Positions 18,185 to 57,084 of a stretch of 59,618 nucleotides of DNA are shown here, one piece after another; positions within the stretch are counted from its first letter, which is position 1; the number at the start of each line of letters is the position of its first letter. The position numbers and the translations under genes are program-made. This DNA comes from Chiloscyllium plagiosum (lineage: Eukaryota). The DNA is taken from the NCBI RefSeq assembly GCF_004010195.1, contig NC_057755.1, forward strand, positions 1,849,306 through 1,908,923, read 5' to 3'. The notes under the pieces were generated by a model. That model was not told the origin of the DNA. It saw nothing but the letters and a program-made list of their open reading frames with translations, and did no database searches.

Positions 18185-18331
18185 GACAAAAGCGAGGACA
18201 GCAGATTCTGGAAACTAGAGTTTAGATCAGAGTGGTGCTGGAAAAGCACAGCAGGTCGGGCAACAATCGAGGAGTAGGAAAATCAATGTTTCGGGCAAAA
18301 GCCCTCATGAAGGGCTTTTGCCCAAAACGTC
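18185..18331. mobile_element. Penelope-like element terminal (pLTR) fragment with inverted junction, inserted in the satellite
   Basis: gagtggtgctggaaaagcacagcagg...tttcgggcaaaagccc tcatgaa gggcttttgcccaaaacgtc; matches the PLE termini at 51996-52080 and 59003-59095. Confidence 0.85.
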
Positions 18332-24300: not shown

Positions 24301-27300
24301 TCAGATGGTTGGGATGGTGACTAGGTTTATGATTCTGTCAGTGGTTAAAGATAGTGACCGTGTTTGTGATTACCGTCAGTGGCTAGGGTTGTGACTGGGT
24401 CTGTGATTGCGTTCAGTGGTTTAGGGATGGTGACGAAGATTGTGATTTCTTTTAGGGGTTAGGGATGGTTACCAGGTTTAGGATAGTAACTGGGTCTGTG
24501 ATTATGTTCAGTGGTTAGGGATGATTACCAGATATGTGATTATTGTCAGTCGTTAGGGATGGCGACCAGTTTGTGATTACTGTCGGCAGTTCGTGATGGT
24601 GACCGTGTTTGTGATTACCATCAGGGGTTAGTGATGGTGACGGTTTTTGTGATTCCGGTAATTGGTCTGGGTTGATGAGTGTGTTTGTGATAACTTTCAG
24701 TGGTCAAGGATGGTGGCCGTGTTTGTGATTATCGCCATTGCATTAGGAATGATGACCAGTTTTGTGATTACTGTCAGTGTTTCGGGATGCTGACCGGATT
24801 TGTGATAACTGTTAGTGGTCAGAGAAGGTAACCAGATTTGTGACTACTCTCAGCGGTTAGGGATGATGACCAGTTTTGTGATTTCTCTCAGTGGTAAGTG
24901 ATGCTTACCGCATGTGTGATAACGGTCATTTGTCAGGGATGGTGACCGGGTTTCTATTGCTGTAAGTCGTTAGGGATCGTGACAAGGTTTGTGATTACTG
25001 TCAGTGGTGGCGGATGGTGATTGAGTTTGTGATTACAGTCAGTGGTCAGCGATGGTAACTGGGTTTGTGATCAACGTCAGTGGTATGGAAGGTGACCAGA
25101 TTTGTGATTACCATCAATAGTTTGAGATGGTGAACGTGTTTGAGACCACCGTCAGTGGTATGGGATAGCGATTGAGCTTGTGATTACAGTCAGTGGGAAG
25201 GGATGATGACTGGGTTTGTGATTACCGTCAGTGGTAGCGGATGGTGAATGAGTTTGTGATCACCACCAGTGGTATGGAAGGTGACCGGATTTGTGATTAC
25301 CATTAGTGGTTTGAGATGGTGACCGGGTTTGTGATTACAATCAGTGGGAAGGGATGTTGACTGGGTTTGTGATTACTCTCAGTAGTCAGGTATGCTATCT
25401 GGCTTTGTGATTACCGTCAGTGGTTTGGGATGATGACCAGGTTTGTGATTATAGTCAGTGGTTTGGGATGGTGCCCTGGTGTGTGATAAACATCAGATGT
25501 TAGTGATGGTGACTGGGTTTGGGGTTACTGTTAGTGATTAGGAATGGTGACCAGAAATATGATTACTGCCAGTGGTTATGGATGGTGATCAGGTTTATGA
25601 TTACAGTCATGGCTTAGGAATAGTGACCGGGTTTATTGTTCTGTCAGTGGTTACAGATAGTGACCGTGTTTTGATTACCGTCAGTGGTTAGGCATTGTGA
25701 GTGGGTCTGCGATTACGTTCAGTGGTTATGGATGCTGCCGAGGTGTGTGATTTCTCTCAGGGGTAAGGGATGGTGAGACGGGTTTGTGATTTCTTCCAGT
25801 GGTCAGGGATGGTAATCGGGTTTGGGATAATGACTGGGTCAGTGATTACGTTCAGTGGTTAGGGATGGTGACCAGATACGTGATTACTGTCAGTCGTTCG
25901 GGATGGTGACCAGTTTGTGATTACTGTCGGTGGTTATGAATGGTGATGGCTTTTGTGATTCCTGTAATTGGTCTGGGTTTTCGACTGGGTTTGTGATTAC
26001 TCTCAGTGGTCAAGGATGGTGTCCGTGTTTGTGATTATCGTCAATGTATTAGGAATGATGACCAGTTTTGTGATTACTATCAGTGGTTAGTGATGCTGAC
26101 CTGATTTGTGATAACAGTCGGTGGTCAGGGAAGTTGACCGGGTTTGGGACTACTGTCAGTGGTTAGGTATGATGACCAGTTTTGTGATTACTCTCAGTGT
26201 TTAGGGATGCTTACCGGATTTGTGATAACTGTCAGTGGCCAGAGATGGTGACTGGATTTTTATTGCTGTCAGTGGTTAGGGATGGTGACCAGGTTTGTGA
26301 TTATTGTCAGTAGCAGTGGATGGTGACCGATTTTGTGATTACAGTCAGTGGTTTGAGATGGTGACCGGGTTTCTTATCACAGTGAGTGGTTTAGGATCGT
26401 GATCGAGCTTGTAATTACAGTCAGTGGGAAGGGACGTTGACTGGGTGTGTGATTACTGTAAGTAGTCAGGTATGCTAACTGGCTTTGTGATTACCATCAG
26501 TGGTTTGGAATGATGACCAGGTTTGTGATTACTCTCAGTGGCGAGGGATGCTTACCGGATTTGTGAAAGCTGTCAGTGGTGAGGGATGGTGCCCGGGTTT
26601 GTGATTGCTGTTACTGGTAGTGATAGTGACCTGGTTTGTGATTACATTCTGTGGTCAGCGATTGTAATAGGGTTTGTGATCACCGTCAGTCGTATGGAAG
26701 GTGACCGCATTTGAGATTACCGTAAGTGGTTTAGGATGGTGACCGTGTTTGTGATAACCATCAGTGGTTTAGGATCGTGATTGAGTTTGTGATTGCAGAC
26801 AATGTGAAGGGATGGTGACTGGGTTTGTGATTACTGTCAGTAGTCAGGTATGCTAACTGGCTTTGTGATTACTATCAGTGGTTTGTGATGATGACCAGGT
26901 TTGTGATTACCGCCAATGGGTAGGGATGGTGACCGGCATTGTCATGACTTTCAGTGATCAGGGATGTTAACAATGTTTGTGATTACTCTCAGTAGTTAGG
27001 AAGGTCACCGGGATTGTGATTACCATCAGTGTTTCGGGATGGTGATCGTTTTTGTGTTTACTGTCAGTGGTTCGTGATGGTGACCTGGATTGTGATTACT
27101 GTCAGTGGTTAGGGATGGTGAATCGGTTTCTGATTACCGTCAGTAGTTACGGATGATGATCGGGTTTGTGACTACCATTAAGGGTTCGGGATGATAACTG
27201 GGTTTGTGATTAATGGAATTGGCTGGCGTTGATGACCGGCTTTGTGATTAGTGTCAGAGGTTATGAATGTTACTGATTTTGTGATTGATTAAAGCGGGTA

Positions 27301-29380
27301 TGAATGGTGAGTGGTTTGCGAATAATATCTGTAGTTAGTGATGGTGACCGGGTTTGTGATTAATATCTGTGGTTAGGGATGGCGGCCGGGTTTGTAATTA
27401 CTGTCGGGGGTAGGGATGGTAACCAGGATTGTAATTACTGTCCGAGGTTATGACTGGTGACCAGGCTTGTGGTTACCATGAGGGATTAAGGATGGTGACC
27501 GGTTTTTTCCTTGCTGTCAGGTGTTAGGAATGGTGACCAGCTTTGTGATTATCGTCAGTGATTAGGGATGATGACCAACATTGTGATAACAGTTAGGGGT
27601 TAGGGATGGTGATTGGGTTTGTGATCACTGTCCGTGGTTGTGGATGGTGACCGTATTTGTGATTATCTTCAGTGGAAGGGCATGTTGACCGGGTTTGTGA
27701 TTACCGTCAGTGATTTGGTATAGTGACCAAGTTTGTGATTACTGTCAGTGTTTAGGGATCGTGACCCGGTTTCTGACCCGATTACGGTCAGAAGTTAGGG
27801 ATAATGACCGGGTTTGTGACTACCATTAATGGTTGGGGATGTAAACTGGGTTTGTGATTAATGGAAGTGGCAGGCGTTGATGACGGGGTTTATGATTAGT
27901 GTCAGTGGGTCGGTTTTGTGATTTCTCTCAGTGGTCAAGGTTGGTGAGTGGGTTTGTAGTTACTGTCAGTGTTTAGGGATGGTGAACAGGTTTGTGATTA
28001 ATATCTGTGGTTACGGATGCTTACCGGGTTTGTGATTAATGTCGGGGTTAGGGAGGGTAAACAGGATTGTAATTACTGTCCGTGGTTAGGGATGGTGACC
28101 AGGCTTTTGGTTACCATCAGTGTTTAAGAATGATGACCGGTTTTGTGCTGCTGTCACGTGTTAGGGATGATGACCACCTTTGTGATTACAGTCTCTGATT
28201 AGGGATGGTTACCAGCCATTTGATTACTGTCTGGAGTTAGGGATAATGACCGGATTTGTGATTACTCTTAGTGGTTATGGATGGTAACCGCGTTTGTGAT
28301 TACCTTCAGTGGGAGGGCATGTTGACCGAGTTTGTGATTACCGTCAGTAGTTAGGGATGGTGACCAACATTGTGATTACCGTCAGTAGTTAGCGATGGTG
28401 ACCAACATTGTGATTACCGTCAGGAGTTAGGAATGGTGACTGGGTTGGTGATTACTGTCAGTGGATCTGAATGGTGACCGTGCTTGTGATTACCTTCAGT
28501 GGCGGACATTTTAACCGGGTTTGTGATTAACGTCAGTGATTTGGTATAGTGACGAGGTTTGGAATTACTCTCCATGGTTAGGGAAAAAGACCGGGTTTTT
28601 GATACCATAAGGGGTTAGGGATTGTGACCGTTTTTGTGATTCCTGTAATTGGTCTGGGTTGGTGACTGGGTTTGTGATTACTGTCAGTGGTCAAGGATGG
28701 TCACCGTGTTTGTGATTATCGTGAGTATTTTAGGAATGATGATCAGTTTTGAGATTACTGTCAGGGGTGACAGATGAAGACTGGATTTGTAATTACTGTT
28801 AGTGGTATGGATGGTGACCCTATTTGTGATTACATTCCGTGGTAGAGCATGTTGACCGAGTTTGTAATAACCATCATTGTTTAGGGATGATGATCAAGTT
28901 TGTGATTGCTGCTGGTGGTTAGGGATGATGACCGGGTATGTGATTACTGTCAGTGGTTAGGGATGGTGAACGGGATTGTGAGCACTGTCAGTGTTTATGG
29001 ATGATGACCCGCTTTCTGATTAGCATCAGTAATTAGGGATAATGACCGGGTTTGTGACCACCATTAATGGTGAGGGATGGTAATTGGATTTCTGATTAAT
29101 GGAAGTGGCGGGCATTGGCGAACGAGTTTGCGATTAGTGGGTTGTTTTGTGGATCGGTTTTTTGTGAAAGCAGTCAGTTGTTAGCGATGGTGACCACGTT
29201 TGTGATTACTGTCAGTGGTAGCGGATGGTAACCCGGATTGAGATTAATATCAGTGGCAGCGGATGTTGACCGGGTTTTTGATTACTCTCAGAGAAAACCG
29301 TCAGGGTTTAGGGATGGTGATCGCATTTGTGATAACAGTCAGTGGTTAGCGATGGTGACCACATTTGTGATTTCTGCCAG

Positions 29381-29410
29381 TGCGCTTTTCCAGCAACACA
29401 TTTTTAAACA
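29381..29410 (+). mobile_element. Tiny Penelope-like terminal remnant in the satellite
   Basis: tgcgcttttccagcaacacatttt is the reverse complement of aaaatgtgttgctggaaaagcgca at about 58195-58218. Confidence 0.75.
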
Positions 29411-32400
29411 TTGTTATTACCGTCAGGGGTTAGGGATGGTGACTGGGTTTGTGATTACTGTCAGTGGTTCTGGATGGTGACCGTGTTTGTAATTACCTTC
29501 AGTGGTAGGGCATGTTGCCTGGGTTTGTGATTAACGTCAGTGATTTGGTATAGTGAACAGGTTTGTGATTAATGTCCATGGTTAGGGATGGTGACCGGGT
29601 TTGTGTTACCATAAGGGGTTAGGAATTGTGACCGTGTTTTTGATTCCTGTCATTGGTCTGGGTTTGGGTTGGTGACTGGGTTTGTGAATACTGTCAGTGG
29701 TCAAGGATAGTCACCGTGTTTGTGATTATCATGAGTATTATAGGAATGATAACCAGTTTTGTGATTACTGTCAGGAGTTAGGAATGAAGACCGGATTTGT
29801 GTTTACTGTTAGTGGTTATGGATGGTGACCTTGTTTGTGATTACCTTCAGTGGTAGGTCATGTTGACCGAGTTTGTGATTTCCATCGGGGTGGGAATAGT
29901 GACCGGGTTTGTGATTACTGGCGGTGCTTAGGGACGGTAACCAAGATTTTAATTACTGTCCGTGGTTCGGGATAGTGACTGGGTCTGTAGTTACCATAAG
30001 GGATTAAGGAGAGTAACCGGTTTTTTTGCTTACTGTCAGGTATTAGGGATGGTGACCAGGTTTGTGATTACTGTCAGGTGTTCGGGATGCTGACCAGCAT
30101 TGTGTTTGCTCTCAATGGTTACTGATGATGACCGGGTTTGTCATTAATGTCAGCGATCAAGGATGGTCACCATTTTTGTGATTACCGTCAGTGGTTATAG
30201 ATTGTGACCAGGTTTGTGATTACTCTCTGTGGTTAAGAATGGGTACCAGATTTGTGATTTCTGTTAGTGGTTAAGGATGGTGACTGGGGTTGTAATTACT
30301 GTCAGTGATAAGCTTTGGCAACCGGCTTTGTGATTACTGTCAGGGATGGTTAGGGATGGTGACCATGCATGTGATTACCGTGAGGGTTTAAGGATGGTGA
30401 CCGGGTTTGTGATGACAGTCAATGGTTAACGATGGTGGCCGGGTTTGTGATCATTACCAGTGGTAGCGGATGGTGACCCGGATTGTGATTACTGTCGGTG
30501 GTCAGGGATAGTGAGCGGGTTTCTGATTACCATCAGGGATTAGGGATGCTGACCGGGTTTGTGACTACCATCAAGATTTAGGGATGGTAGCCGGATTTGT
30601 GATTAATGAAAGTGGCAGGCGATGGTGACCGTGTTTGAGATTAGTGTCAGTGATTAGGGAAGGTGTCGGATTTGTGAAAACCGTCATGGTTTAGGGATGG
30701 TGATCGAGTTTGTGATAACAGCGATTGGTTAGCGGTGGTGAACACGTTTGTGATTACTGTTAGTGGTTAGAGATGGTGGAAGGGTTTCTGTTTGCCGTCA
30801 TGGGTTAGGGATGTTGTCCAGGTCTTTGTCTACCATCAAGGGTTAGGGATGGTAAGTAGGTTTGTGATTAATGGAAGTAGCTGGCGACGGCATCCGGGTT
30901 TGTGATTAGTGTCAGTGTTTATGGATGGTGACTGGTTTTGTGAATGCGGTCAGGGGGTAGGGATGGTGACCGGTTTTGTGATTTATCTCACTGGTCAAGT
31001 TTGGTGACAGGGTTTGTGGTTACTATCAGTGGTTAGGAATGGTGACCAGGTTTGCAATTAATGTCTGTGGTTAGGGTGGAAACCGGGTTTGTGATTAATG
31101 TCGGTGTTCGTGATGGTAACCAGGATTCTGTTTAGTGTCCGTGGTTCGGGATGGTGATAGGGTTTGTGATTACTATCAGGGATTAATGATAGTAACCGGT
31201 GTTTTTGCTTACTGTCAGGTCTTAGCGATGGTGACCACGTTTGTGATTAATGTCTGTGGTTAGGAATGGTGACTGTGTTAGCGATTACCATCAGTGGTCA
31301 AGGATGGTGACTGGGTTTGTGATTACAGTCTGTAGTTTGCGCTGGTAGCCGGGTTTACGATTACTGTCGGGGGTTGGGGATGGTAACCAGGATTTTAATT
31401 GCAGTCCATGATTAGGGGTGGTGACCACGTTTGTGATTATCGTCAGGGATTAAGAATGATGACCGGTTTTGTGCTTACTGTCAGGTGTTAGGAATGGTGA
31501 TCAGCTTTGCGGTTACTGTCAGTTTTCACAATGGTGACCACGTTTGTGATTACTGTCAGTGGTAAGGGATGGTGACCAGCATTGTGATTACTGTCATGGG
31601 CTAGGAATTATGACCAGGTTTGTGATTGCTGTTAGTGACTTTCTATGGTGACCGGGATGTGATTACTGTCAGGGTGAGGCATGGTGACTGGATTTGTGAT
31701 TACTGTCAATAGTTCTAGATGGTGACTGTGTTTCTCATAACCTTCAGTGGTAGGGGATATTCACCGGGTTCGTGATTATAGTCAGTGGGTTGGGATAGTG
31801 ACGGTGTTTGTGATTACTGTCAAGGGTTAGGGATTATGGTGACTGGGATGTGATTACTGTCAGGGGTTATGGCTGATGACTTGAATTGTGATTACTGTCA
31901 GTAGTTCTGGATGGTGACCGTGTTTGTGATTAACTTCTGATTTAGGGGATATTGACCGGGTTTGTGATTACAGTCAGTGGTTTGTGATAGTGACCATGTT
32001 TGTGATTACTGTCTGTGGTTCGGGATGATGACCGGGTGTGTGATTACAGTCAGTCGTTAAGGATGTGACAAGTTTGTAATTACTATCAGTAGTATGTTGC
32101 TAACTGATTTTCTGATTACTGTCATTGGTGTTGGATGATGACCAGGTTTGTGATCAACGTCAATGGATAAGGATGGTGACTGGCATTGACATTATTGTCA
32201 GTGCTCAGGGATGTTAACAGTGTTTGTGATTACTGACAGTGTTTAGGAATGATCACCTGGATTGTGATAACCATCAGTGATAAGGGATGTTCACAGGGCT
32301 TGTGATAACTGTCAGTGGTTCTGGATGGTGACGAGGTTTTGTGATTACAGTCAGGGGTTAGTGATGGTGACTAGGTCTGTGATTACTGTCAGTGGTTAGG

Positions 32401-33723
32401 GATTGAGACGGGGTTTATGGTTACTGCCTTTGGGAAGGGTGACCCGGTGTGAGATTCCTGTTAGAAGTTATAGGATAGTTACCGGGTGTGTGATTACTTA
32501 CAAGGTTTATGACTAATCACCGGGTTTGTGATTACCGTCAAAGTTTAGGGATGGTGACTGGGTCTGTGATTAATGTAAAGTGTTTGGGATAAGGAGCGGG
32601 TTTGGTTTTACTGTTTGTTGTTAGGAATGTTGATTGGGTTTGTGACTACCACCAGTCATCAGGCATGGTGTCCGATTTTGTGATTTTTGTCAGTGGTTAA
32701 GTGGTGACCGGTTTCGTGATTACATCAGATGTTAGAGATGTTGCAGATGTTTGTGCTACATGTCAGGAGTTCTGGATGGTGACCAGGTTTGTATTACTGT
32801 CAGATGGTTGGGATGGTGACCCGGTTTGTGATTACTGTCATGGCTTAAGGATGGCGACCCGGTTTATGATTTTGTCAGTGGTTACAGATAGTGACCGTGT
32901 TTGTTATTATTGTCAGTGGCTAGGTATTGTGACTGTGTCTGTGAATGCGTTCAGTGGTTAAGGGATGTTGACGAAGTTTGTGATTTCTTTTAGGGGTTAG
33001 GGATGGTTACCGGGTTTGGAATAGTGACTAGGTCTGAGATTACGTTCAGTGGTTAGGGATGATTACTAGATGTGTGATTATTGTCAGTCATTAGTGATGG
33101 CGATTAGTTTGTGATTACTGTCGGCGGTTCGTGATGGTGACCGGGTATGTGATTACCGTCAGGGGTTAGTGATGGTGACGGTTTTTGTGATTCCTGTAAT
33201 TGGTCTGGGTTGGTGACTGTGTTTGTGATTACTCTCAGTGGTCAAGGATAGTGGCCGTGTTTGTGATTATCGTCATTGTATGAGGAATGATTACCAGTTT
33301 TGTGATTACTGTCAGTGGTTGGGGATGCTGATCTGATTTGTGATAACGGTCGGTGGTCAGGGAAGTTGACCGGGTTTGTGGCTAGTGTCCATGGTTAGGG
33401 ATGATGACCAGTTCTGTGATTACTCTCAGTGGTTAGGGATGCTTACTTGATTTGTGATAACTGTCAGTGGTCAGGGATGGTGACCGGATTTTTATTGCTG
33501 TCAGTGGTTAGGGATGGTGACCAGGTTTGTGATTACTATCAGTGGTAGCGGATGGTGACTGGGTTTGTGATTACAGTCGGTGGTCAGCGATGGTGACTGG
33601 GTTTGTTATCACTGTCAGTGGTTTGGAAGGTGACCAGATTTGTGATTAGCATCAGTAGTTTGAGATGGTTACCGTGTTGGAGATCACCGTTATTGGTTTG
33701 AGCTAGTGATCGAGCTTGTGCTT

Positions 33724-34040
33724 GGTGGGGGGCACAGTGGTTAGCACTGCTGCCTCACAGCGCCAGAGACCCGGGTTCAATTCCCGCCTCAGGCGACTGA
33801 CTGTGTGGAGTTTGCATGTTCTCCCCGTGTCTGCGTGGGTTTCCTCCGGGTGCTCCGGTTTCCTCCCACTGTCCAAAGATGTGCAGGTCAGGTGACTTGG
33901 CCACGCTAAATTGCCCGTATTGTTAGGTATAGGGGTAAATGTAGGGGTATGGGTGGGTTGCGCTTCGGCGGGTTGGTGTGGACTTGTTGGGCCGAAGGAC
34001 CTGTTTTCACACTGCAATGTAATCTAATCTAAAATCTAAT
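33724..34040 (+). mobile_element. Young, full-length HE1-type SINE inserted in the satellite
   Basis: ggcacagtggttagcactgctgcctcacagcgccagagacccgggttcaattcc (A and B boxes), conserved core and (aatct)n tail. Interrupts a unit at gagcttgtg|cagtcaatg. Confidence 0.95.
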
Positions 34041-36076
34041 CAGTCAATGTGAAGGGATCCTGACTGGGTTTATGATTACTGTCAGCAGTAGCAATGGTGA
34101 ACGGGTTTGTGATCACCGCCAGTGGTATGGAAGGTGACCGGATTTGTGAATGCCGTCAGTGTTTTGGGACAGTGAACGGGTTTGTGATCACCATCAGTCG
34201 TTTGGGATAGTGATCGAGCTTCTGATTAAGTCAGTAGAAAGGGATGTTGACTGGGTTTGTGATTACTGTCAGTAGTCAGGTTTGCTAACTGGCTTTGAGA
34301 TTATTATCAGTGGTTAGGGATGATGACCAGTTTTGAGATTACTCTCAGCGGTTAGGGATGCTGACCGGATTTGTAATAACTGTCAGTGGTCAGGGAAGAT
34401 GACCGGGTTTTTATTGCTTATTGTTGTTAGTGATACTGACCAGGTTTGCGATTACTGTCAGTGGTAGCGGATGGTGACTGGGTTTGTGATTACAGTCAAT
34501 GGTCAGCGATCGTGACCGGGTTTATGATCAGCGTCAGTGGTGTGGAACGTGACCGGATTTGTGATTACCGCCAGTGGTTTGAGATGGTGACCGGGTTTGT
34601 GATCACCGTCAGTGGTTTGGCATTGTGGTCGAGCTTGTGATTACAGTCAATGGGAAGGGATGGTGACTGGATTTGTGATTACTGTCAGTGATAGCGGATG
34701 GTGACTGGATTTGTGATTACAAGTCAGTGGTCAGCGATCGTGACCGGGTTTGTCATCACCGTCAGTGGTATGGAAGGTTACCGGATTTGTGATTGCCGTC
34801 GGAAGTCTGCGATGTTGACCGGGTTTGTGATCACCGTTGGTGGTTTGGCGTAGTGATCGAGCTTGTGATTACAGTGGGAAGGGATTGTGACTGGGTTTGT
34901 GATTACTGTCAGTGGTGGCCGATGGTGACAGGGTTTGTGATTACAGTCAGTGTTCAGAAATGGTGACCGGGTTTGCGATCACTGTCAGTGTTTTTGAAGG
35001 TGACTGGATTTGTTATTACTGTCAGTGGTTTGAGATGGTGACCGGGTTTGTGATTACTGTCAGTGGTATGGGATAGTGATCAAGCTTGTGATTACAATCG
35101 TTGGGAAGGGATGTTGACTGGGTTTGTGATTACTCTCACTAGTCAGGTACGCTAACTGGCTTTGTGCTTACCGTCAGTGGTTTGGGATGATGACCAGGTT
35201 TGTGATTACAGTCAGTGTTTAGGGATGGTGACCTGGTGTGTGATAAACATCACATTTTAGGGATGGTGACTGGGTTTGATGTCAGTGATTAGGATTGGTG
35301 ACCAGAATTATGATTACTCTCAGCGGTTTTGGATGGTGATCAGGTTTGTGATTACAGTCATAGCTTAGGAATGGTGACCAGGTTTATGATTCTGTCAGTG
35401 CTTACAGATAGTGACCCTGTTTGTGGTTACTGTCAGTGGTTAGGCATTGTGATTGGGTCTGTGATTACGTTCAGTAGTTATGATGTTGACGAGGTTTGTG
35501 ATTTCTGTCAGGGGTTAGCGATGGCGACCGGATTTGTGATTACTGTCAGTGGTCAGGGACGGTTACCGGCTTTGTGATTGCTGTCAGTGTATAGGGATAG
35601 CGGCCTGGTTTGTGATTACTGTCAGGGGTTAGGGATGATGACCGGATTTGTGATTACTGTGAATGATTTGGAATGGTGACAGTGTTTGTGATTTCTGTCA
35701 GTGGTAGTGGATGGTGACCAGAATTGTGATCACTGTCAAAGTTTAAGGATGGTGACAGGATTTGTGATTGCAGTCAATGGTTAAGAATGGTGACCCGGAT
35801 TGTGACTACTGACCTTATTTGTGATAACGGTCGGTGGTCAGGGAAGTTGACCGGGTTTGTGACTACTGTCCGTGGTTAGAGATGATGACCAGTTTTATGA
35901 TTACTCTCAGTGGCGAGAAATGCCTCCCGGATTTGTGAGTGGTGAGGATTGGTGACCGGGTTTTTTTTTATTACAGTCAGTGGTGAGGGATGGTGACCAG
36001 GTTTGTAATTACTGTTAATGGTAGTGGATGATGACCGGGTTTGTGATTACAGTCAGTGGTCAGCGATGGTGATCGT

Positions 36077-36236
36077 TGTTGTGGTTCTGTTCGCCGAGCT
36101 GGAAGTTTTTGTTGCAAACGTTTCGTCCCCTGGCTAGGCGACATCATCAGTGCTTGGGAGCCTCCTGCGAAGCGCTTCTTTGATATTTCCTCCGGTGTTT
36201 ATAGTGGTCTGTCCATACAATCTTCGCACAAACTTT
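36077..36236 (-). mobile_element. Penelope-like terminal fragment (second family) inserted in the satellite, flanked by a 12-bp direct repeat
   Basis: Non-satellite 160 bp flanked by GATGGTGATCGT at 36065-36076 and 36237-36248; contains a hammerhead core on the minus strand. Confidence 0.8.
36113..36153 (-). ncRNA. Minimal hammerhead ribozyme motif (PLE-type)
   Basis: Minus strand: gca CUGAUGA u gucgccuagccaggggac GAAA c GUU ugc. Both core boxes intact, stem II guc/gac, stem I gca/ugc, NUH cleavage triplet. Confidence 0.7.
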
Positions 36237-38699
36237 GATGGTGATCGTGTTTGTGATCACCATCAGTGGTATGGAAGGTGACTGCATTTGAGATTACCGT
36301 AAATGGTTTGAGATGGTGACGGTGTTTGTGATCACCGTCAGTGGTTTGGGATCGTGATCGAGTTTGTGATTACAGTCAGTATAAAGGGATGGTGACTGGG
36401 TTTGTGATTACTGTCAGTAGTCAGGTATGCTAACTGGCTTTGTGATTACTATCAGTGGTTTGGGATGATGACCAGGTTTGTGATTACCGTCAATGGGTAG
36501 GGATGGTGACCGGCATTGTCATGACTTTCAGTGCTCAGGGATGTTAACAGTGTTTGTGATTACTGTCAGTGGTTAGGGAAGGTCACCGGGATTGTGATGA
36601 CCATCGGTGGTTAGGGATGGTGACCGTGTTTGTGATTACTCTCAGTGGTTTGGGATGGTGACCTGGATTGTGATTACTGTCAGCGGTTAGGGATGGTGAA
36701 TCGGTTTCTGATTACCGTCAGTAGTTACGGATGATGACCGGGTTTGTGACTACCATTAAGGGTCCGGGATGATAACTGGGTTTTTGATTAATGGAATTGG
36801 CTGGCATTGATGACCGGCTTTATGATTAATGCCACTGGTTATGGATGGTGACTGGTTTTGTGATTGTTTTAAGGGGGTATGAATGGTGACCAGGTTTATG
36901 ATTAATATCTGTCGTTAGGAATGGGGACCGGATTTGTGATTACTGTCGGGGCTAGGGATGATAACCAGGATTGTAATTACTGTCCGTGGTTAGGAATAGT
37001 GACCAGGCTCTTGTTTACCATCAGGGATTAAGGATGGTGAACAGTTTTTTTGCTTGCTGTCATGTGTTAGGAATGGTGACCAGCTTTGTGATTACCGTCA
37101 GTGATTAGGGATGATGACCAACATTGTGATTACTGTCCTGGTTATGGATGGTGACCGTATTTGTGATTATCATCAAATGTAAGGCATGTTGACCGGGTTT
37201 GTGATTACCGTCAGTACTTTGGTATAGTGACCAAGTTTGTGATTACTGCCTGTGGTTAGGGATGATGACTGGATATGTGATTACTGTCAGTGTTTATGAA
37301 TGGTGACTTGGATTGGGATTGCTGTCAGTGGTTAGGGATGGTGACACGGTTTCTGATTACCATCAGAAGTTAGGTATAAATACCGGGTTTGTGACTACCA
37401 TTAATGGTTAGGGATGGTAACTGGGTTTGTGATTAATGGAAGTAGTGGGTGTTGGTGACCGGGCTTGTGATTAGTGTCAGTGGGTAGGGATGGGGATCGG
37501 TTTTGTGATTTCTTTCAGTGGTCAAGGTTGGTGACCGGGTTTGTAGTTAATGTCAGTGTTTAGGGATGGTGACCAGGTTTGTGATTAATATCCGTGGTTA
37601 CAGATGCTGCCCGGATTTGTATTTATTGCTAGTGGTCAGGGATGTTGACCAGGTATGTGAAAACCGTCAGTGTTCGGGATGGTATCCACGTTTGTGATAA
37701 CAGTCAGTGGTTAGCAATAGTGACCAAGTTTGTGATTACTGTCAGTGGTAGCGGACGTTGAGCGGGTTTGAGATTACTGTCAGGGAAAACCGTCAGGGTT
37801 TAGGGATCGTGACTGGATTTGTGATAACAGTCAGTGGTTAGCGATGGTGACCACGTTTGTGATTACTACAGGCATAATCTCCCAGGCACTTTCAAGGATC
37901 CAAACGCATCATTCTCTGAAGATTTGCAATGGGTCCAAACACAGACTGCTACTGGTTTTCCGATGCCAATGATGGCCTCAACATTCAGAAGCCAATCTTA
38001 ATGCTGAAGAAAACATTGCTGCATTTTTAAATTTGATTTTATGCTTCCTAGGTGTGATGTGGAAATGTGGGAGATGAACACAGATCTCCTGGATCCATGG
38101 GACCAAACAGCCCTCAGCAGCATTCCTGCTAATTTTAAGGTCTTTAAGAGTAACCCAGGGGGTGAGAATCAGCTGAAGAATAGTGTTTCCTCAGGGATAA
38201 AAGAACAGGCGAAAAGCCTTAAGTTGGACACAATTGACAGAAATGCCTCCATCTCAGGGACATGAGGGGAAACAATCTGATCATTTTAGGCAGTTGATCA
38301 GTCTATTAAATATTTGCCTGTAACACGTACCTCACCTGCCACAAGGCTTCATTCATTCTCTAGGAGTTCAATAAAGGTGGCATTGTCCCATAGTCAAGAC
38401 TGGAAGGGATCCAACATCTCATGGTGTGTTCGTGTATTCAGTATTAACACTGCACGTAACTGAACGTTCAAGTTTCAGTCTGCAACACAACAATATACAT
38501 GGTGCAAACTGCTTACTGTCCAAATTTCAGTTGTCCCACACTATGGATATTGTATGTCCGTAGAGAGTACACGCTTTGCAGACTGTAGAGTGTCCAAACT
38601 TCAGCCGATCCACACAGTAGTCCTGAATTTCTTTTCACAATGCAGTAGCTGAATGCTGCTGAGTACTCAAATATCAGTTATCCCGCGCTATTGATAATG

Positions 38700-48302: not shown

Positions 48303-49201
48303 TCACTTCTTTTGTTTACTCATTAATTGAATAACTGTCGTAAATGGATATTTCACTGTTCTCTTCATCTCATTTCTGAATTTCTTCTGTGTTGCCACAT
48401 AAATGAATGTGTTTGTGCAGCAATTTAAGGTCCGCAGCATCCAGCCAGCTCTTCGAACTTTATAAAAAGTATCACTGTAAATATTGCCTGTGAGGGCATA
48501 GAAGAAATTTATAACGTACAGAAGCCACAGAACTATGAAACTTCCTGAAATTGTGAACAACAAAATCACAGATTTCCTTCTACTCTCCATCTCCGGGTCG
48601 TTGATATTTTTCCTCTTGTTCTGCCTGCTCAGTCCCAATCTGAATTGACTAACCACCAAAATATATCGGACTGTCAGAACATTCAGCAAAACGACAGAAA
48701 GAAATGGGAGTAATGGGGTAAATATCAAATCAAACCAATCAAATCCCACCCAACCTGGATCGGTAAAATAGTTTGCCTTTCTGTAACAGAACCACGGCAC
48801 ATTGTTGACTATCTTTCCAGGTTCAAACGTAAAGTAGAAGGGAATGTTTTTTAAGCAGAACAGAGTAGACGTTGTTGCTAAAACTATACTCGCAGTTTTC
48901 TCAGTGCAATATTGCGTATTAAACTTCTGGCAACAAATGGCCACAAATCGATCAAAGGTGAAAGCGTCAGTGAACCAAACAGAGCAGTCTGTAGCAACAC
49001 AAAACAGGAGATTGATAATATTACAAGCATAGGTGATGTCCAAGATGCCCACTGGGAAGTAATAGTAATAGATCTGTCTCAGTATGACCTCAGTGATAAT
49101 GAACATTAGATCCGCTACTGCCATGGCCACCAGGTAGCGAGTAGTGCAAGTGGAAAGGCCACACTTACCCCGACACAATGTCAGAATTGCCAATAAATTA
49201 A
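48303..49201 (-). CDS. Class A GPCR, shark GPR139/GPR142-like family, coding exon 2
   Basis: Acceptor tttctcttttcttttgcag|TT AAT TTA (AG at 49203-49202), phase 1. Intact ORF with VNLLAI, RGKCGLSTCTTRYLVAMAVADL, TFDRFVAICC, PWFC, TPLLPF, DPEMESRRKS and CCTNTFIY; TGA at 48305-48303. Confidence 0.95.
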
Positions 49202-51627
49202 CTGCAAAAGAAAAGAGAAATTGCACTATCAAGCATTGATCAGATATTCCTAATTTATTAGGGATCTGCCACACTCTCCCAATCTTGCTCTTCAAACTTA
49301 CTCCTCACTTCCGTCCTTCCACAACCTTCACTTGAGACTGACAATGACAATTCGCAACCTGGTACAAAGCTCAAGAAAGCAAACCAATCTCAATGTTTTG
49401 TACCATCACAGGCTTATTGTATCCACCCCCATTCCATTCCGCTGAGTGGTGCATCCCAAGTCCTTGTGAATGACATCCCATTTTGAAGTGTGAAAGTTAT
49501 CTTTCGCACACAGTGATTCACAGGGAGGAAGAAATGCAAGATTTTGTCTGGGTCTATAATGGCCACTTTGGGAATCATGCTGTATATTCTGAGAGTATGC
49601 TACATGACATGGGTAAAATATCAAAACAGTCAGCTCACTTTCAAGATACATAGCGTCATGGTGGTGGGTTTTGGATTGGAGCAGAGGGAGTGGAGGGCTG
49701 CACGTTGTGAGGGGGAGCCACTGATAAAAGTGGTGCAGTGGCATTTTGCCGCACTGATCTCTACACCATTGAAGTCAAGCGCCAACTTGAAGACACTTCC
49801 GCCTACCGTCCCCTCGACAATGACCCCACCCCACCCATCACCAAACCATCATCTCCCAGACCATACACAACCTCATCCCCTCAGGAGATCTCCCAGCCAC
49901 AGCTTCCAAACTCATCGTTTGGGAACCCTGCACTGCCCGATTCTACATCCTTCCCAAGATCAACAAGCCTGAAAATCCTGGCCGACCCATTGTCTCAACC
50001 TGTTCATGCCACACCGAACTCATCTCTGCCTACCTCGATACTGTCCTCCCTCTCCGACACTCGGAACACCTCACATACGTTCGAGACACCACCCATGCCT
50101 TCCACATCCTACAAGCCTTCCAATTCCTCAACACCTAACGCCTCATCTGCACCATGGATATCCAATCCTTCGATGCTTCCATTCGCCCTGACCATGGCCT
50201 CCAAGCCATTCGTTTTTTCCTCTCCCAACGTCCCCACTACTGCCCTTTCACTGACACTCTCTTTCGTTTGGCTGAACTGGTCCTCACCCTTAACAATTTC
50301 TCCTTTGAATCCTCCCATTTCGTCAAGACCAAAGGGGTAGCCTTGGGCACCCGTGTGGGCCCCAGCTATGCCTGTCTCTGGGTTGGCTACGTAGAATAGT
50401 CCATCTTCTGTAGTTACACCGGTACCACTCCCCACCACTTCCTCCACTACATTGATGACTGAATCCGCGCCACCTCGTGCTCCGGCGAGGCAGTTGAGCA
50501 GTTCATCAACTTCACCAATACATTCCGCCCGGCCCTTAAAAATTCACCTGGACCATCTCTGACACGTCCCTCGCCTTCCTAGATCACTTCATCTCCATCA
50601 ATCATGACCGACTTAACACTGAAGTTTTTTTTACAAACCCACCAACTCCCACAGCTACTTGAATTACACATTTTTCCTTCCGACCTTCTGCAAAAATGTT
50701 ATCCCGTATTCTCAGTTCCGCCATCTCCTCTGTATCTGTTCCCAGGAGGACCAGTTCGACCACGGAACACACCAGACGGCCTCCTTCCTTAAAGACTGTA
50801 TTTTCTCTTCCGACGTGTTTGAAGATGCCCTCCAATGCATCTCACCCACGTCCCGCACCTCCGCCCGCATACCCCACTCCTCCATGCACAAGGACAGAAC
50901 CTCCCCGGCCCTCACCTTTCACCTTAGCAACCTTTGCATAAACCGCATCATCCGCCTACTACGAACGGACACCACCATCAGTGATGTATTTCCCTTCCCA
51001 CCCCTATCCACGTTCCGCAAAGACCGTTCCTTCCGTGACTACCTGGTCAGGTCAATGCCCCCCAATAACCCACCCTCCCGTCGTAGCAGCTTCCCCTGCC
51101 ACAGCAGGAATTGCCAGCGTCCAGACCTCCCCCTCACCTCCATCCAGGGCCTCAAAGGAGCCTACCACAGCCATCAATTTTTCACCTGCACATCCACCAA
51201 TGTTATTTATTGTATCAGATGCTCCCAAAGCAGTGTTCGTTACATGGGGGAGACTGGACGCCTCCTCGTGGAGTGCTTTAAGGAACATCTCCGGGACACC
51301 CGCATCAGTCAACCCCACCGCCCTGTGACCGAACATTTCAAATCCCCCTCCACCTCTGCGAGGATATGCAGGTCCTGGGCCTCCTCTACCACAACTCCCT
51401 CGCCACCTGACGCCTCGAGGAATAACACCTCATCTTCCACCTCGGAATACTTCAACCCCAGGGTATAAATGTGGACGTCACCAGTTTCCCTCATTTCCCC
51501 TCCCCCAATATACCCCAGTTTCAAAGCAGCCAGCTCAGCACCATCCTGATGACCAGTCCTACCTGCCAATCATCATCCTATCTGCTCCACAATGCTCTCG
51601 GAACCTAACCCCACCTCCATCCACCTC

Positions 51628-51900
51628 GTTAAAAATCACACAACACCAGGTTACAGTCCAACAGGTTTAATTCGAAGCACACAAGCTTTCGGAGCGACGC
51701 TCCAACATCAGGTGATAGTGGAGGGCTCGATGGTAACAGAGAGCTGTGTTACGATCGAGCCCTCCACTATCACCTGATGAAGGAGTGTCGCTCCAAAAGC
51801 TAGTGTGCGTCCAATTAAACCTGTTGGACTATAACCTGGGGTGTTGTGTGATTTTTAACTTTGTACACCCCAGTCCAACACTGGCATCTCCAAATCATGA
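51628..51900. mobile_element. About 230-bp foldback (two inverted PLE terminal repeats) plus tail, nested in the Penelope 3' region
   Basis: 51628 to about 51740 is the near-perfect reverse complement of about 51745-51859. Flanked by ccatccacct direct repeats (about 51617-51626 and 51904-51913). Confidence 0.88.
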
Positions 51901-51991
51901 CTCCCATCCACCTATTTTACTCTCCCCTACTTTTATTTCCGCAGCCCCACCACTTCCCATTTATCTCTCCAATTCAAACACTCCCTGCATC

Positions 51992-52026
51992 ATTCCTGAT
52001 GAAGGGATTTTGCCCGAAATGTTAAT
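51992..52026 (+). ncRNA. Minimal hammerhead ribozyme motif in the Penelope pLTR
   Basis: auuc CUGAUGA(51996-52002) a gggauuuugccc GAAA(52016-52019) u GUU aau. Confidence 0.65.
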
Positions 52027-53059
52027 TTTCCTGCTCTTCGGGTGCTGCCACGCTTGATGTGTTTTTCTAGCACCACTCAAATCTTGACATAGATTCATCC
52101 AGCACAGATACAGCCTTTGGTCCAACTTGCCCACGCCAAACAAATTTCCTAAACTAAAGTTACGCTTTCCAACATTATCTGGGCATAGGTCTTTAATCCC
52201 TTCTGGTAGCCTAATAGTGCATGACTTTTAACCCTGGGCCTCTGACACAATATTTACTGTATGTTTCACATACTTTTTAAAACACCATTCTGATCAGGGT
52301 ATGTAGGGGTGTCCCAGCTGACAATGCCTTCACTGCTGTTAAACAGAAAATTAGCTTCCTCGACTCTTTAGAATTCAAAGGTCTCTCAACTCTCTTGAAC
52401 TTAAAATAAAGGTATTTCAATTCTGAAAGTAAAAAATGACTTTCCCTTGTCCCTGTCCCTCAGCGCAGGGACAACAAGTGATCAAATTATAGAATAAACT
52501 TTCCTCTATTCATTCAGACTAAAAGTAGCCAAAAAAATCAAATCCCCCCATTTCTGTTCCCGTTGAGCACTCTCAGAACACGGATAAAGAGGTTTAAAAT
52601 CAGACAAAATTTCTTCTCATTGGAACAGAAAACAAAAAATGTCTGGTTCCCTCACCCTGGGACAGACGGAAGAGGCGGGAGTTAAAATAAAAGTGTCCTT
52701 GATTCTTTCAAAAGTCCAAAATATCTCTAGGTCTCCAAGACAACAGGCAAGCACCTGTACCCACCTCCCCATGCTGACTTCCAGTGTCTCTCTGTACCCC
52801 ACTATCTTTGCTCACATTGACAGGTGATCACCTGGCTAATGGGCCAATTTCCATTCGGCTGCCGGTGTCATCAGTTACTCAATTAAATCCTGGCTTTCCT
52901 GTGGGGTATTAAATCATGGCTCAGGCTAAATTCTGAGAATACCAGGCCGGTGGGTTTGACTTCAGATGAACCAACGATCACTTCTTATCGAAGGTCATCG
53001 AGGGACGGCAAGTGTTATCTAGTTCTTTCGTAAGAAACGTTAGACAACTCTAACTAGAA

Positions 53060-53655
53060 TGTTATGAATGAATTTGCCCAGATATCTCACAATACCAAAG
53101 CGATCAAAACACTATGAACACAAGCCAGTTCTAATGCAAAACAGTCTCAATTTTATTCGGAAACAACGTGCAATAACTATGACTACACAAGAATACCACC
53201 TCCAATTATATTCAGCCCCTCAATCTTCCAATACTTCCAGAGTTTCTTGTATATTTACATAGCTGTTCTCTTTTTCACAGTCCCTGTTTTACTGCAAAGC
53301 TGCTTTCTCTCTCTCTTTCTCTCTCTCTCTGTCTCTCTCTCTCTCCAGATGGTCAGTGGATATCTGCCTTTGGCCATGCTAGTCTATTCAGAAGATCCAA
53401 GAGGAAATGGTCACAAAGGTGACCCCTATGTTTATATATTTTGGATGCTTTTCCGGCACTCTCCATTGTTTTGACCAGTCAGGGAGACACACTTAATAGT
53501 TTGAAACACTGTAAATCATTTGACCGGCCTGCTACTTTTCAATTATTTGTGCAGAAGGACCCCTGCCTTTCTGTCTGTGCCTTTCTCTGACTTGGTGGAT
53601 AATTTGTTGGAGATGTGTCAGTCCAAGATTACTGTTTTTTTTTAATATTATGCAA
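53060..53655 (-). mobile_element. Possible solo LTR
   Basis: Begins tgttatg and ends near attatgca. Minus-strand AATAAA at about 53152-53157; internal (CT)n at about 53305-53345. No second copy in the window to confirm. Confidence 0.3.
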
Positions 53656-53989
53656 AATACATTAGCACCCAGCTGTCCTGCTTGCGCTGTGTCTTGATAC
53701 TAAAGCTCATTCGATGAGAGATGTTTGCGCTGAAGGGATCAAAGAATATCTGAATCAGATTACCTGCTTCCACAACACCCTAAAAAATCAAGACAATATA
53801 TTGTATCTGTTTATAAATATATATCATCAGAATAGACAACAATGACAGATGATTCTATTCATGTAGTTACAAGAGAAGACATCAGAAGCTTCAATAACGT
53901 CTATGAGATTAATCCTAATAGATAGGAAAGAAAATGGAATTCATATTAAAATAGACGCTGAAATGCTTTGAGATCACATAATATAATGA

Positions 53990-55650
53990 AACACTTAACA
54001 TATACTAGAGTAGGCTGGGCACATATTCCAAAAGGAAGAATTACTCTTGATCAACTTACTTGGGCAAAGTAAATAAATCACAATTGATAAACAATATGTG
54101 GAACCACTGAAATTTATGTACCTTCTAAAGGTCGTTGATATGGCACCAGGTAGCAGGCACATGAGCAAGGTCAGAGATTTGGATTCAAGATTGGATAGCT
54201 TACTAACAGTAAGAACATCAAAGAGAAGAGGTGGTTCACTCAGATCTGTGAAAAGGATTAAAATGCATTCCAGAGGAATGTGCAATGAACCGATGACATC
54301 CAATATTTGGAACAAGGCTTAAAAAAGACGAAAACAATGTTCACGCAAATATAAATTGTGACTTGCAGGTAACACAGCGAACAATCCAACAAACCACCAG
54401 AACAATAAATAAAATTGATCAATTAAGATCAACAACTAGCATAAAATAATGTCAACAAATATAAATTGTGACTTGCAGGTAACACAGCGAACAATCCAAC
54501 AAACCACCAGAACAATAAATAAAATTGATCAATTAAGATCAACAACTAGCATAAAATAATGTCAATACAGTTAATTATAGGGCACAACGTTCTGGTCAAA
54601 TTAAATATTAACAAAATGTCTTTTGAGAATATGAGTCTGACATGGACAGATTGGCAAAATGATTGACAGTGTAGAATTTTTTGAAAAGTGTTCAATACAA
54701 CAATACAAGTCAACATAGTAATAAATTAGCATATAAATCAAGAGCAAAGAAACTAAAGTTAAAAATTCAGGTTACATTGTACTCATACAAAAGCATTGAT
54801 ATGCAAAATTTATCATCTCATCTATACATATATGGCATGCGACATTTTTCAATTAAAACTGATATTGTTGAGGACGCACAATTATTCCAAACAGGATGAC
54901 AGTAATACTATGAGGTGTACAAATGTATTTCATAAATATTAATAATGCCTGTGTAATTATTATTTATGATTAACTTGCTTGGTTTGATCACCACATTATG
55001 AAACTTTGTTCACAATTGTCCTCAATGAGAAACGCCATCCTTTATACCAATACAGCTCAAATAAACTAGGCCAGTTATGGGACCAGCAGGTCTACCAATA
55101 CACAGAATTATGGTGAGAAATTACCAATAAGATTTCAGCTATGCAATTGTATAATGAATAACCATAGACCTATATTAGTCCTTTCTTAAATTAGGAACTT
55201 ATACCCAGGAGCATTCTAGAGCAGGTGGATCAATCATTCTATAAAATTATTCTTTAACTATACTCAGAAGAATAAAAAAACACAGAGGTTTGCAGCATTT
55301 CAATAGAACTGTCCAACATGTTACGAGTTAATATACAGCAGATATGTGTTACTTTTCAAACAGTGCATGTAATGCTCTTCACACATGTATTGCTAAACAG
55401 CAGAAGTTTTCTCTTTGTAATCGATCGATTCTGTATAACATGTTGTCAGATCCATTTCGTGGATAGTTTAGTGACCAAGAATAATTATTCATGGAAACAC
55501 ATTTTATGATATCACAGCCATTAACTTACACCTTAGTATTCTATGCTAACAGATACGGCTAGCATGACAGAGTCACTTGAGCTAAATGTTCACCCTAAAC
55601 AGTAACCAAACCTTGCTCTTGTAACAGCCTGCATGACACTCTCATGATTA
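53990..55650 (+). pseudogene. Possible fossil viral class I fusion (F-type) envelope gene
   Basis: A-rich coding-like stretch. Frameshift-joined translation gives a basic site KEKR|WFTQI, then KGLKCI, GMCNE, DDIQYLEQGL, a heptad-like segment and a later Cys-rich block. Heavily decayed. Confidence 0.35.
54346..54565 (+). repeat. Perfect 110-bp tandem duplication
   Basis: 54346-54455 is identical to 54456-54565 by eye. Confidence 0.97.
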
Positions 55651-55985
55651 GGTCGGAACATTGCCGCCACCAGAACTTAAATACAGTTGGAACTTCATTA
55701 CATTAAAATTCAGTAACTTGATAATTCAACAAGCATATGGTTTACAAGAATATTCTTTATAGTTGAGTCAATGGAATAATTTGATATGACCTACACCTTG
55801 CAAAATGATATCACTGATCAGGTGCTTGCAGGTATTTTCCAGTCAACCTGTTCAGAGATGTTACTGAATACTGCTGAAACAGACATGATATGTACGGATG
55901 GTTAGCACTGCAGAAAACACTCTCGGCAACATAGTGACAAAAGATCAAGATCAATTACATAATTTTAGTAATTCTAACTTCTTAC

Positions 55986-56052
55986 CAGGAATACCAATAC
56001 AAGCAAGAACAGTGTAATATATCTTCCTGATACTGTAAAATGTGAGACACAT
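55986..56052 (-). CDS. Coding exon 1 of the minus-strand GPCR (MCLTFYSIRKIYYTVLACIGIP plus 1 nt)
   Basis: gaaaATG (A at -3); 67 nt = 22 codons + G; canonical G|GTAAG donor at 55985-55981. Phase 1 joins exon 2 to give GIPVNLLAI, an intact TM1 with N1.50. Intron 6784 bp; protein 321 aa. Confidence 0.93.
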
Positions 56053-56129: not shown

Positions 56130-56137
56130 TATTTATA
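56130..56137 (-). promoter_or_regulatory. Candidate TATA box (TATAAATA) about 78 bp upstream of the GPCR ATG
   Basis: Reverse complement of tatttata; spacing compatible with a short 5'UTR. Confidence 0.45.
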
Positions 56138-57084
56138 TTGTGTGGTCTCTATGGGGATATGAACTTTGCAATGTCACTTGTTTTGTTTAAATTGTATTTT
56201 GAACAAAGACATTACGACATTCAGCAAGTTATTTTTGTGAGATTTGTTTTCCGAATTTCAATGTGATTACCCCAAGGATATGGGACTTGGAAAGAAATGA
56301 GTTCTTAATTTTCCATCTGAATTCACACTTTTACAACAGATTTTCCAAACGATGCAAACCCTCAACTAATGCCATAACCTTCAACTAGTCATTTCAGTGT
56401 TCAAGAATTATCCTGCTCTAGATTGCGACCATTCAGCAATGAATGTCTGAACAATGGAATGCCAGAATAGGAGCTATGTAATGTGGTTCAACCCTTTAAA
56501 TGGTATTATTCAGTACTTAAATTTCAGAGCTATGAGCATAACTCTCGGGACATTTGTGCTCACATTTGGCATATAGTTACCCTTGTGCATTATTGACTCT
56601 AAATAATCGGTTCCTCGGCAACTGTAAAGGTTGCCTCATATACCCGAGATATCGATGCAGTGGTTGGGTTAAACCATCAACAAATTAAGTATTTGAATTC
56701 TGACTGATTCATCGTTTCTCTCATAGTGTCCTTCTACATATGATAAGAGTGTAAGATATTGGAGCAGAAGCGGCTCATTCAGCCCATCCGGGCTGTAACT
56801 TGCAATGGTAAAAACACAAAGTTCCACCTGAAGGTTTAACTGTGTCCATTAGATGAATGGCGAAGGTAGATTTTTGTTTGGTCCCGAGCTTATACAATTC
56901 AATTTACTGACTGATTCACTCTGTGCAGCAAGAGAAACAAATATTTTGGCTTGGCAACCCACTCCACCGAGTTTTGTTTTTGGCGCTTTGTTGAGTCAGC
57001 CATTATTTGTTTTTTTTTTCTCTTTATCAAAGTCTGACAAAGGAATCACAGTGTCTGTCTTTAAACAACAGAGACTCAAGTCAG

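Follow-up and report, generated by a model that had tools for sequence, protein, structure and literature searches.

Receptor genes in the window

The stretch of DNA analysed here, called the window below, comprises 59,618 nucleotides of the genome of the shark Chiloscyllium plagiosum (contig NC_057755.1, positions 1,849,306 to 1,908,923) and contains two related genes, A and B, for class A G-protein-coupled receptors (GPCRs). Both belong to a very large receptor family of sharks and rays, whose size, ancestry, selection and promoters are described in this work.

Gene B consists of two exons that splice to a frame of 321 amino acids with no internal stop and is thus intact (Table 1); its first exon scores 41 bits on an exon-1 profile built from other sharks. 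In gene A the second exon is open, and no first exon was found within the window. The best candidate is situated ~9.2 kb before the window start (locus L031), with an intron of 11,953 nt and a profile score of 7-8 bits, and a strict exon-1 scan missed it. The original prediction of two intact paralogs in the window therefore stands for gene B and for the open second exon of A, whereas the intactness of A is not visible there, as its exon 1 lies outside. The two genes are convergent and separated by 44.7 kb.

Exon 2 of A and B is identical in 149 of 299 columns (50%), in agreement with the first estimate of about half of the positions. Identity had been described as concentrated in cytoplasmic and structural parts, with divergence in the outer ones. 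This is correct for intracellular loop (ICL) 1 (11/12), lower transmembrane helix (TM) 3 (17/19) and ICL3-TM6 (20/26) on the one side, and for upper TM3 (4/12), extracellular loop (ECL) 2 after its cysteine (3/11) and TM6 top-ECL3-TM7 top (7/31) on the other, but TM5, listed as divergent, is average (13/28). The isoleucine found in A instead of N1.50 is unique among 86 intact family members (1/86). Because a few further sampled copies likewise do not have the asparagine, its loss may be a trait of a subclade.

Table 1. Features of genes A and B and repeats in the window (window positions)
Feature	Position	Strand	Remarks
Gene B exon 1	55986..56052	-	67 nt: ATG, 22 codons and one base; short N-terminus, first half of TM1; GT donor, phase 1
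Gene B intron	49202..55985	-	6,784 nt, GT...AG, phase 1, just before N1.50
Gene B exon 2	48303..49201	-	Remainder of TM1 to stop; class A GPCR; Pfam 7tm_1, E 4.5e-19
Gene B TATA box	56131..56137	-	85 bases before ATG; position conserved in the family
Gene B O/E (EBF)-like site (putative)	56148..56157	-	6/8 consensus positions; 20 bases before TATA; at the family's fixed position
Gene B bZIP-like motifs (two)	56165..56174, 56211..56219	-	Conserved in the main-clade promoter
Paralog A exon 2	2757..3643	+	Open frame; Ile replaces N1.50; Pfam 7tm_1, E 3e-13
Satellite	12636..37783		25 kb, degenerate; 38-base unit, ~660 copies, 65% matches
Repeats in gene B intron	49700..52100		High-copy decayed retroelement and short high-copy repeat
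Tandem duplication in gene B intron	54346..54565		110 bases, perfect

Size and spread of the family

A degenerate 24-base pattern for TM3 has 1,632 exact matches in this genome and a TM7 pattern has 1,118, with none for either reversed control; the first 20 sampled TM3 matches were all family members by tblastn (20/20). The state of exon 2 was determined for 60 of the first 100 listed TM3 matches, which are on contigs C7 and C8 only: 19 copies were intact, 31 were broken and 10 fell into gaps. As 19 of 60 loci keep an intact second exon, extrapolation gives ~500-600 such exons genome-wide and suggests several hundred working genes; the TM3 pattern catches 28/47 and 11/29 of the intact members known from a protein search, so that this estimate may be low. 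In that search of the shark's own genome, in which 132 of 8,344 candidates were scored, nearly all hits were full-length (E <=3e-100, 54-84% identity); by hand count ~100 of 133 rows had no stop, and 26 were on the window's own 12.8-Mb contig. Of 62 genes sampled, 54 had a defined acceptor, and the 8 in which no acceptor was called were set aside; 35 of the 54 had an exon 1 within 9 kb, in all cases of phase 1.

In the protein database, 2,234 clusters match at E <=0.001; the 120 listed matches are all from a shark or ray, nearly all automatically named "probable GPR139". Members were also found in skate, stingray, bamboo shark and zebra shark, that is, in sharks and batoids. In its hundreds of paralogs and its birth-and-death evolution, the family resembles an olfactory receptor repertoire. 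The lineage-specific expansion that had been proposed is borne out by the copy count, since the 1,632 TM3 loci stand against a single true GPR139 gene and a single GPR142-like gene elsewhere in the genome. One subfamily, referred to here as young, is dispersed along the 107-Mb contig C8 with about one motif match per 500 kb and no tight tandem arrays. Family members are also present on C50, an 8-Mb contig dense in histone genes.

Ancestry and the name GPR139

GPR139 is a class A orphan receptor that responds to L-Trp, L-Phe and alpha-MSH (PDB 7VUG, 9M42; PMC8807744). In a search against solved structures it is the best match of the family, although a weak one (E 9e-8), and no amine receptor is among the seven matches (note that TAARs, the trace amine-associated receptors, have no separate profile in the Pfam output). 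A single true GPR139 is present in the shark genome (E 1.6e-157 against the solved human chain, ungapped across 279 residues), alongside one GPR142-like gene (56% identity; named by inference). Identity of 59 family members is 20-26% to this GPR139 and 17-23% to the GPR142-like protein. A phase-1 acceptor just before N1.50 is common to both genes and to the family, gene B included, and this common position points to kinship, being no proof of orthology. Further likenesses to GPR139 and GPR142 are W6.48 and the N7.49-x-x-x-Y7.53 motif without proline. In contrast to the family, GPR139 and GPR142 are single-copy and conserved, and they do not have the C3.25-C45.50 pair that the family keeps; most family members, in turn, do not have P6.50.

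Salamanders, coelacanth and teleosts have full-length relatives, as revealed by a profile search with 50% representatives and by name look-ups. In an IQ-TREE phylogeny of 37 sequences (20 of the 88 genome sequences; 295 columns), rooted on one distant outgroup that we take to be somatostatin-receptor-like, the family forms a clade (ultrafast bootstrap, UFBoot, 99) with a salamander gene and two conserved shark genes that have bony-fish orthologues (L074 and L063). The sister of this clade (98) consists of four unnamed receptors, probably from invertebrates, and GPR139 and GPR142 are outside. Branching within the clade is weak, including the position of the salamander gene at the base of the family. 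L074 and L063 are the closest non-expanded relatives and single among the loci examined. The single-copy "probable GPR139" receptors of coelacanth (XP_005988539), Odontesthes (KAM4562537), anchovy (XP_063078741) and Pleurodeles (XP_069092602) are in one clade with the family. These vertebrate relatives have the short N-terminus and, in the shark orthologue L074, the same intron; the two shark orthologues stayed single among the loci examined, and only the sister branch expanded.

As the family forms a separate clade, the database name "GPR139" only reflects the best hit; the lineage is a vertebrate one of its own, and one of its branches has expanded explosively in elasmobranchs. The original prediction of an expansion of GPR139/142-like receptors has to be corrected in this respect (UFBoot 99), and one-to-one nesting with known receptors was not found. 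Orthology of the family with GPR139 or GPR142 was considered and rejected, given the identity of 17-26%, the separate clade and the fact that this genome has its true orthologues at other loci. Nor are aromatic amino acids expected as default ligands, because the lineage is separate and because the ligand contacts of GPR139 (positions from PMC8807744) are mostly lost: among the 86 intact members, E3.32 is kept in 0, F3.33 in 10, H5.42/43 in 18, W6.48 in 86, R6.51 in 5 and N7.39 in 3.

L074 (C26:36.6 Mb) and L063 (C98156) are themselves conserved single-copy orphans that are apparently unnamed, 51-63% identical to bony-fish orthologues in the case of L074 and 47% in the case of L063. The true GPR139 (L058, C21:58.73 Mb) is located 0.5-1.5 Mb from family members at C21:59.2-60.2 Mb, maybe by chance near the contig end.

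Conserved signalling face and variable outer face

The proteins are class A GPCRs with a 7tm_1 domain and the residues D2.50, D/E-R3.50, W6.48, N7.49 and Y7.53. In the 86 intact members, D2.50, D3.49, W6.48, N7.49 and Y7.53 are invariant or nearly so (85-86/86), and R3.50, within a DRF motif, and the C3.25/C45.50 pair are nearly invariant. At E 0.01, no Pfam profile for OR (odorant receptors), V1R, V2R, T2R or Srw matched, and only 7tm_1 and one unrelated sub-threshold match were obtained. Since the AlphaFold model of exon 2 is poor (predicted local distance difference test 56, predicted template-modelling score 0.40), the pocket was defined by generic class A positions, with TM4 omitted; the model still matches class A folds and predicts, at this low confidence, a two-strand hairpin for ECL2. 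Across the 86 members, entropy is highest at the 37 pocket sites (2.09 bits), lower in the remainder of the outer TM region (1.54 bits, p 0.002) and lowest on the intracellular side (0.99 bits). Acidic residues are conserved at 2.57 (D/E in 62 of 86 members), 3.37 (D, 69), 5.39 (D, 52) and 5.42 (D, 53).

The ratio of nonsynonymous to synonymous substitution rates (dN/dS, omega) over 19 sister pairs is 0.40 (0.27-0.58) for the pocket versus 0.21 for the intracellular part, and the intracellular face is thus under purifying selection. With a custom codon mixture model, 17 intact genes of the young subfamily on C8 gave twice the log-likelihood difference (2ΔlnL) of 326 in favour of sites with omega >1, compared with <=1.2 in 8 null simulations; removal of columns near gaps changed this value to 319. 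Of the 21 selected sites, 15 are in loops and 20 are extracellular; the latter comprise every second residue of the ECL2 hairpin and a single face formed by TM6 top, ECL3 and TM7 top. Loop omega is 1.5-2 even with a free synonymous rate. A recombination test of the young subfamily gave p 0.41 with only 20 informative sites, which is too weak to exclude gene conversion. The strongest selection thus acts on the outer vestibule of ECL2 and ECL3, more than on the deep pocket. The family had been described as diversified in its ligand pocket; the greater variability and higher dN/dS of the outer side agree with this, but the site of the strongest selection does not.

The short N-terminus noted for gene B is real. 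It is not particular to the expansion, as the single-copy relatives have it too, and as a family-wide trait it was rejected: main-clade N-termini have 19-30 residues, whereas those of the large young subfamily have ~45-90, with a variable number of 14-residue repeats that carry N-glycosylation sequons (L285, L280, L310-L328).

Promoters

In the promoters of 35 two-exon family genes, a common module is present ~80-200 bases before the ATG amid diverged flanks. It is composed, in this order, of two bZIP-like motifs (presumably C/EBP-like in the main clade), an O/E (EBF)-like site ~20 bases before the TATA box, and the TATA box itself; the promoter of gene B carries every element. The region from -250 to -20 was scored in this set, in 17 V2R genes as positive control (those of 20 fetched whose exon 1 was located) and in 19 histone genes as negative control. 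At least 6 of the 8 positions of the EBF consensus are matched in 32/35 family, 15/17 V2R and 5/19 histone promoters, with shuffle means of 11.4, 6.5 and 13.5, respectively. A homeodomain site occurs in 19/35, 8/17 and 0/19, and the histone promoters show the expected CCAAT (16/19). The resemblance to V2R promoters, which depends on the cut-off, favours a putative chemosensory role. In the V2R promoters (L190-L209, C13:59.7-65.9 Mb), a degenerate O/E-like site and a TATA box are located near the ATG.

Young-subfamily genes possess a longer exon 1, their homeodomain site directly adjoins the O/E site, and several copies have a further TAATGA. This pairing recalls the mouse arrangement: Lhx2 and Ebf sites are over-represented in the promoters of odorant-receptor genes and, side by side, in their enhancers (PMC5608512); a match in spacing is putative. 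The strict main-clade pattern has 12 genome matches (control 0), 6 of them followed by a family exon 1. A pattern made from two young-subfamily promoters has 428 (control 26); among the first 30 loci, 13 are followed by a family exon 1, 4 more have the same context and 13 are unrelated. This count of 428 is a product of duplication and not independent evidence.

Possible function

The family is very large, old and elasmobranch-wide. Its signalling face is conserved and its outer face variable, pseudogenes are frequent, and the compact promoter is similar to that of V2R genes. On the features tested it appears to work like an olfactory repertoire, yet it belongs to none of the known chemoreceptor families and not to GPR139/142 either. 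Judged from its sequences, this family of more than 1,600 class A loci is likely, with a probability of roughly 55%, an olfactory-type chemoreceptor repertoire. The more specific proposal is that sharks and rays own a further olfactory family of class A receptors, with several hundred to a thousand intact members, recruited independently from a peptide-receptor lineage, expressed in microvillous neurons and controlled by O/E and homeodomain factors; here we regard the odds as even.

Such a repertoire would have its origin in a small vertebrate lineage separate from GPR139/GPR142 and would have expanded by birth and death. EBF and homeodomain factors would activate each gene in a sparse set of sensory neurons. 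These would probably be the microvillous Go/TRPC2 cells of which the shark nose is composed, as nearly all olfactory neurons of the catshark are of this type (PMC10116579). The ligands may be water-borne molecules that are polar and carry an amino group, peptides being the most plausible. The conserved acids at 2.57, 3.37, 5.39 and 5.42 would hold them, and the hypervariable ECL2 hairpin and ECL3 would set specificity; all members would signal via one common G protein.

The nearest known system in the same animals is the V2R/OlfC repertoire, likewise a birth-and-death cluster with many pseudogenes and with promoters enriched for O/E-like, homeodomain and TATA motifs. V2Rs, however, are class C receptors whose extracellular domain is large and whose expression in the nose is proven, and with 8-43 genes per species (PMC10116579) they are outnumbered more than 10-fold by the family, which belongs to class A and has the additional bZIP-like motif. 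Vertebrate OR and TAAR genes also form large class A repertoires with a conserved inner and a variable outer face and an O/E plus homeodomain promoter logic, and Asp5.42 (in 53/86 members) binds amines in one clade of teleost TAARs, by the non-classical mode (PMC4695389), which is an analogy only. The differences are that the family matches neither OR nor TAAR families, has an intron within TM1, experiences selection on loops and not on the deep pocket, and has an ECL2 hairpin as in peptide receptors, the latter predicted from the low-confidence model. Nematode Srw receptors represent a chemoreceptor expansion from peptide-receptor stock. They are close in language-model features (0.96), but no Pfam Srw match was found at E 0.01, and the expansions would be independent if the two groups are related at all.

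Chondrichthyan genomes have been reported to contain 6-13 OR, 3-5 TAAR, 2-4 V1R and 8-43 V2R genes, and these small repertoires were explained as sensitivity at the expense of discrimination (PMC10116579). Prior surveys sought only these four known families. If the olfactory interpretation is correct, the smell repertoire of sharks and rays is at least 10 times the accepted 20-60 genes and comparable to that of mammals; the paradox of small repertoires in the large, complex noses of cartilaginous fishes would be removed, and an independent origin of vertebrate chemoreceptors would be added. The family thus makes the small-repertoire puzzle of shark olfaction directly testable.

Several observations weigh against an olfactory function. 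P6.50 is absent in 73 of the 86 members (present in 13), so that normal activation is putative. In the main clade, which holds both window genes, the selection test with 49 genes gave 2ΔlnL 7.0 and one site (omega 0.45 in the pocket, 0.2 in the intracellular part); this clade is older, and its signal of positive selection may be saturated or absent. Evidence for selection and the main promoter evidence therefore come from different subfamilies, and in the young one exon 1 was located in only 2 of 10 intact genes, within 20-29 kb. At >=7/8 positions, the EBF consensus is matched in 12/35 family promoters, just 3/17 V2R (p 0.07) and 1/19 histone promoters; two cut-offs were tried, paralogous promoters are non-independent, and the sole negative control, the histone genes, is GC-richer. 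TAATGA is not enriched in main-clade promoters (16/35 versus 14.2 in shuffles), the bZIP-like motif is family-specific (24/35 versus 1/17 in V2R), and the activity of EBF extends to B cells, adipocytes and many neurons. Counts may be inflated by near-identical copies on unplaced contigs, as well as by copies without exon 1.

In ~2/100 of the reads of one single-cell RNA run from an unknown tissue, no full read on gene B was found, and about a dozen partial reads at the conserved TM3 motif differed from gene B; in a second run no reads were placed, and neither run is informative. The main text of the catshark sensory atlas does not name GPR139, and the 50 genes most specific to its brain-plus-nose library include no GPCR, a result of little weight for sparse receptors (PMC11979771). 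The gene name is absent from 8 supplements of PMC13188829. No description of the family was found in the open-access literature on shark or elasmobranch GPR139, orphan or olfactory GPCRs, although closed-access papers and supplements may hold one.

The main rival is a repertoire for immune or barrier sensing in leukocytes, skin, gill or gut. It would work in the manner of formyl-peptide receptors or MRGPRs, and microbial or host peptides would drive change in its outer loops. Selection on ECL2 and ECL3 over the deep pocket (15/21 sites in loops) is a pattern typical of host-pathogen conflict, EBF is a B-cell factor too, and the main clade has the presumed C/EBP-like motif that V2R promoters do not possess. 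On the other hand, ETS, IRF, NF-kB and STAT motifs are not enriched in the 35 family promoters (2, 1, 1 and 1 matches), the homeodomain and O/E pairing also occurs in V2R promoters, and known immune GPCR expansions are far smaller. We consider an immune role unlikely; if it proved correct, the family would be an unusually large diversifying innate receptor repertoire. In either case, the automatic name conceals one of the largest gene families of these genomes.

Chemosensation outside the nose, for example in taste buds, solitary chemosensory cells, skin or somatosensory neurons or ampullary canals, would rest on the same sequence evidence as an olfactory role. EBF and homeodomain factors serve many sensory neurons, and in the catshark several receptor families are expressed outside the nose (PMC11979771). 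However, most catshark V2Rs, whose promoter make-up the family matches, are nose-specific (PMC11979771). No non-olfactory receptor family of vertebrates is known to us to be that large. We hold this reading somewhat less likely still.

A further explanation is that the genes were multiplied passively, through segmental duplication or mobile elements in small chromosomes rich in repeats, and that most copies have no function. This would fit the 31 broken copies among 50 gap-free sampled ones, the satellites and retroelement remnants around the genes and the dispersal of the young subfamily over a 107-Mb contig. It does not explain intracellular dN/dS of 0.2-0.45, invariant signalling residues, a promoter module conserved amid diverged flanks, positive selection on one face only and retention in both sharks and rays; for intact copies it is largely refuted and overall improbable. 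Finally, the best solved-structure match (E 9e-8), the equal intron position and the database naming could suggest that the family is no more than a handful of conserved receptors with brain or endocrine roles, equivalent to GPR139/GPR142 and multiplied in annotation only. This is refuted by the separate true orthologues, the identity of 17-26%, the loss of most GPR139 contacts and the >1,600 loci.

Surroundings of the window genes

The satellite listed in Table 1 fills much of the space between the convergent genes A and B. We take the retroelement in the gene B intron to be Penelope-like; Pfam gave no match for the open frames of this intron, those of the decayed retroelement included. The perfect duplication in the same intron represents either a recent event or an assembly artefact. 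A third, degraded paralog with stops and frame breaks is located ~33 kb before the window on the minus strand (L034:6536-7429, C46 ~1.816 Mb).

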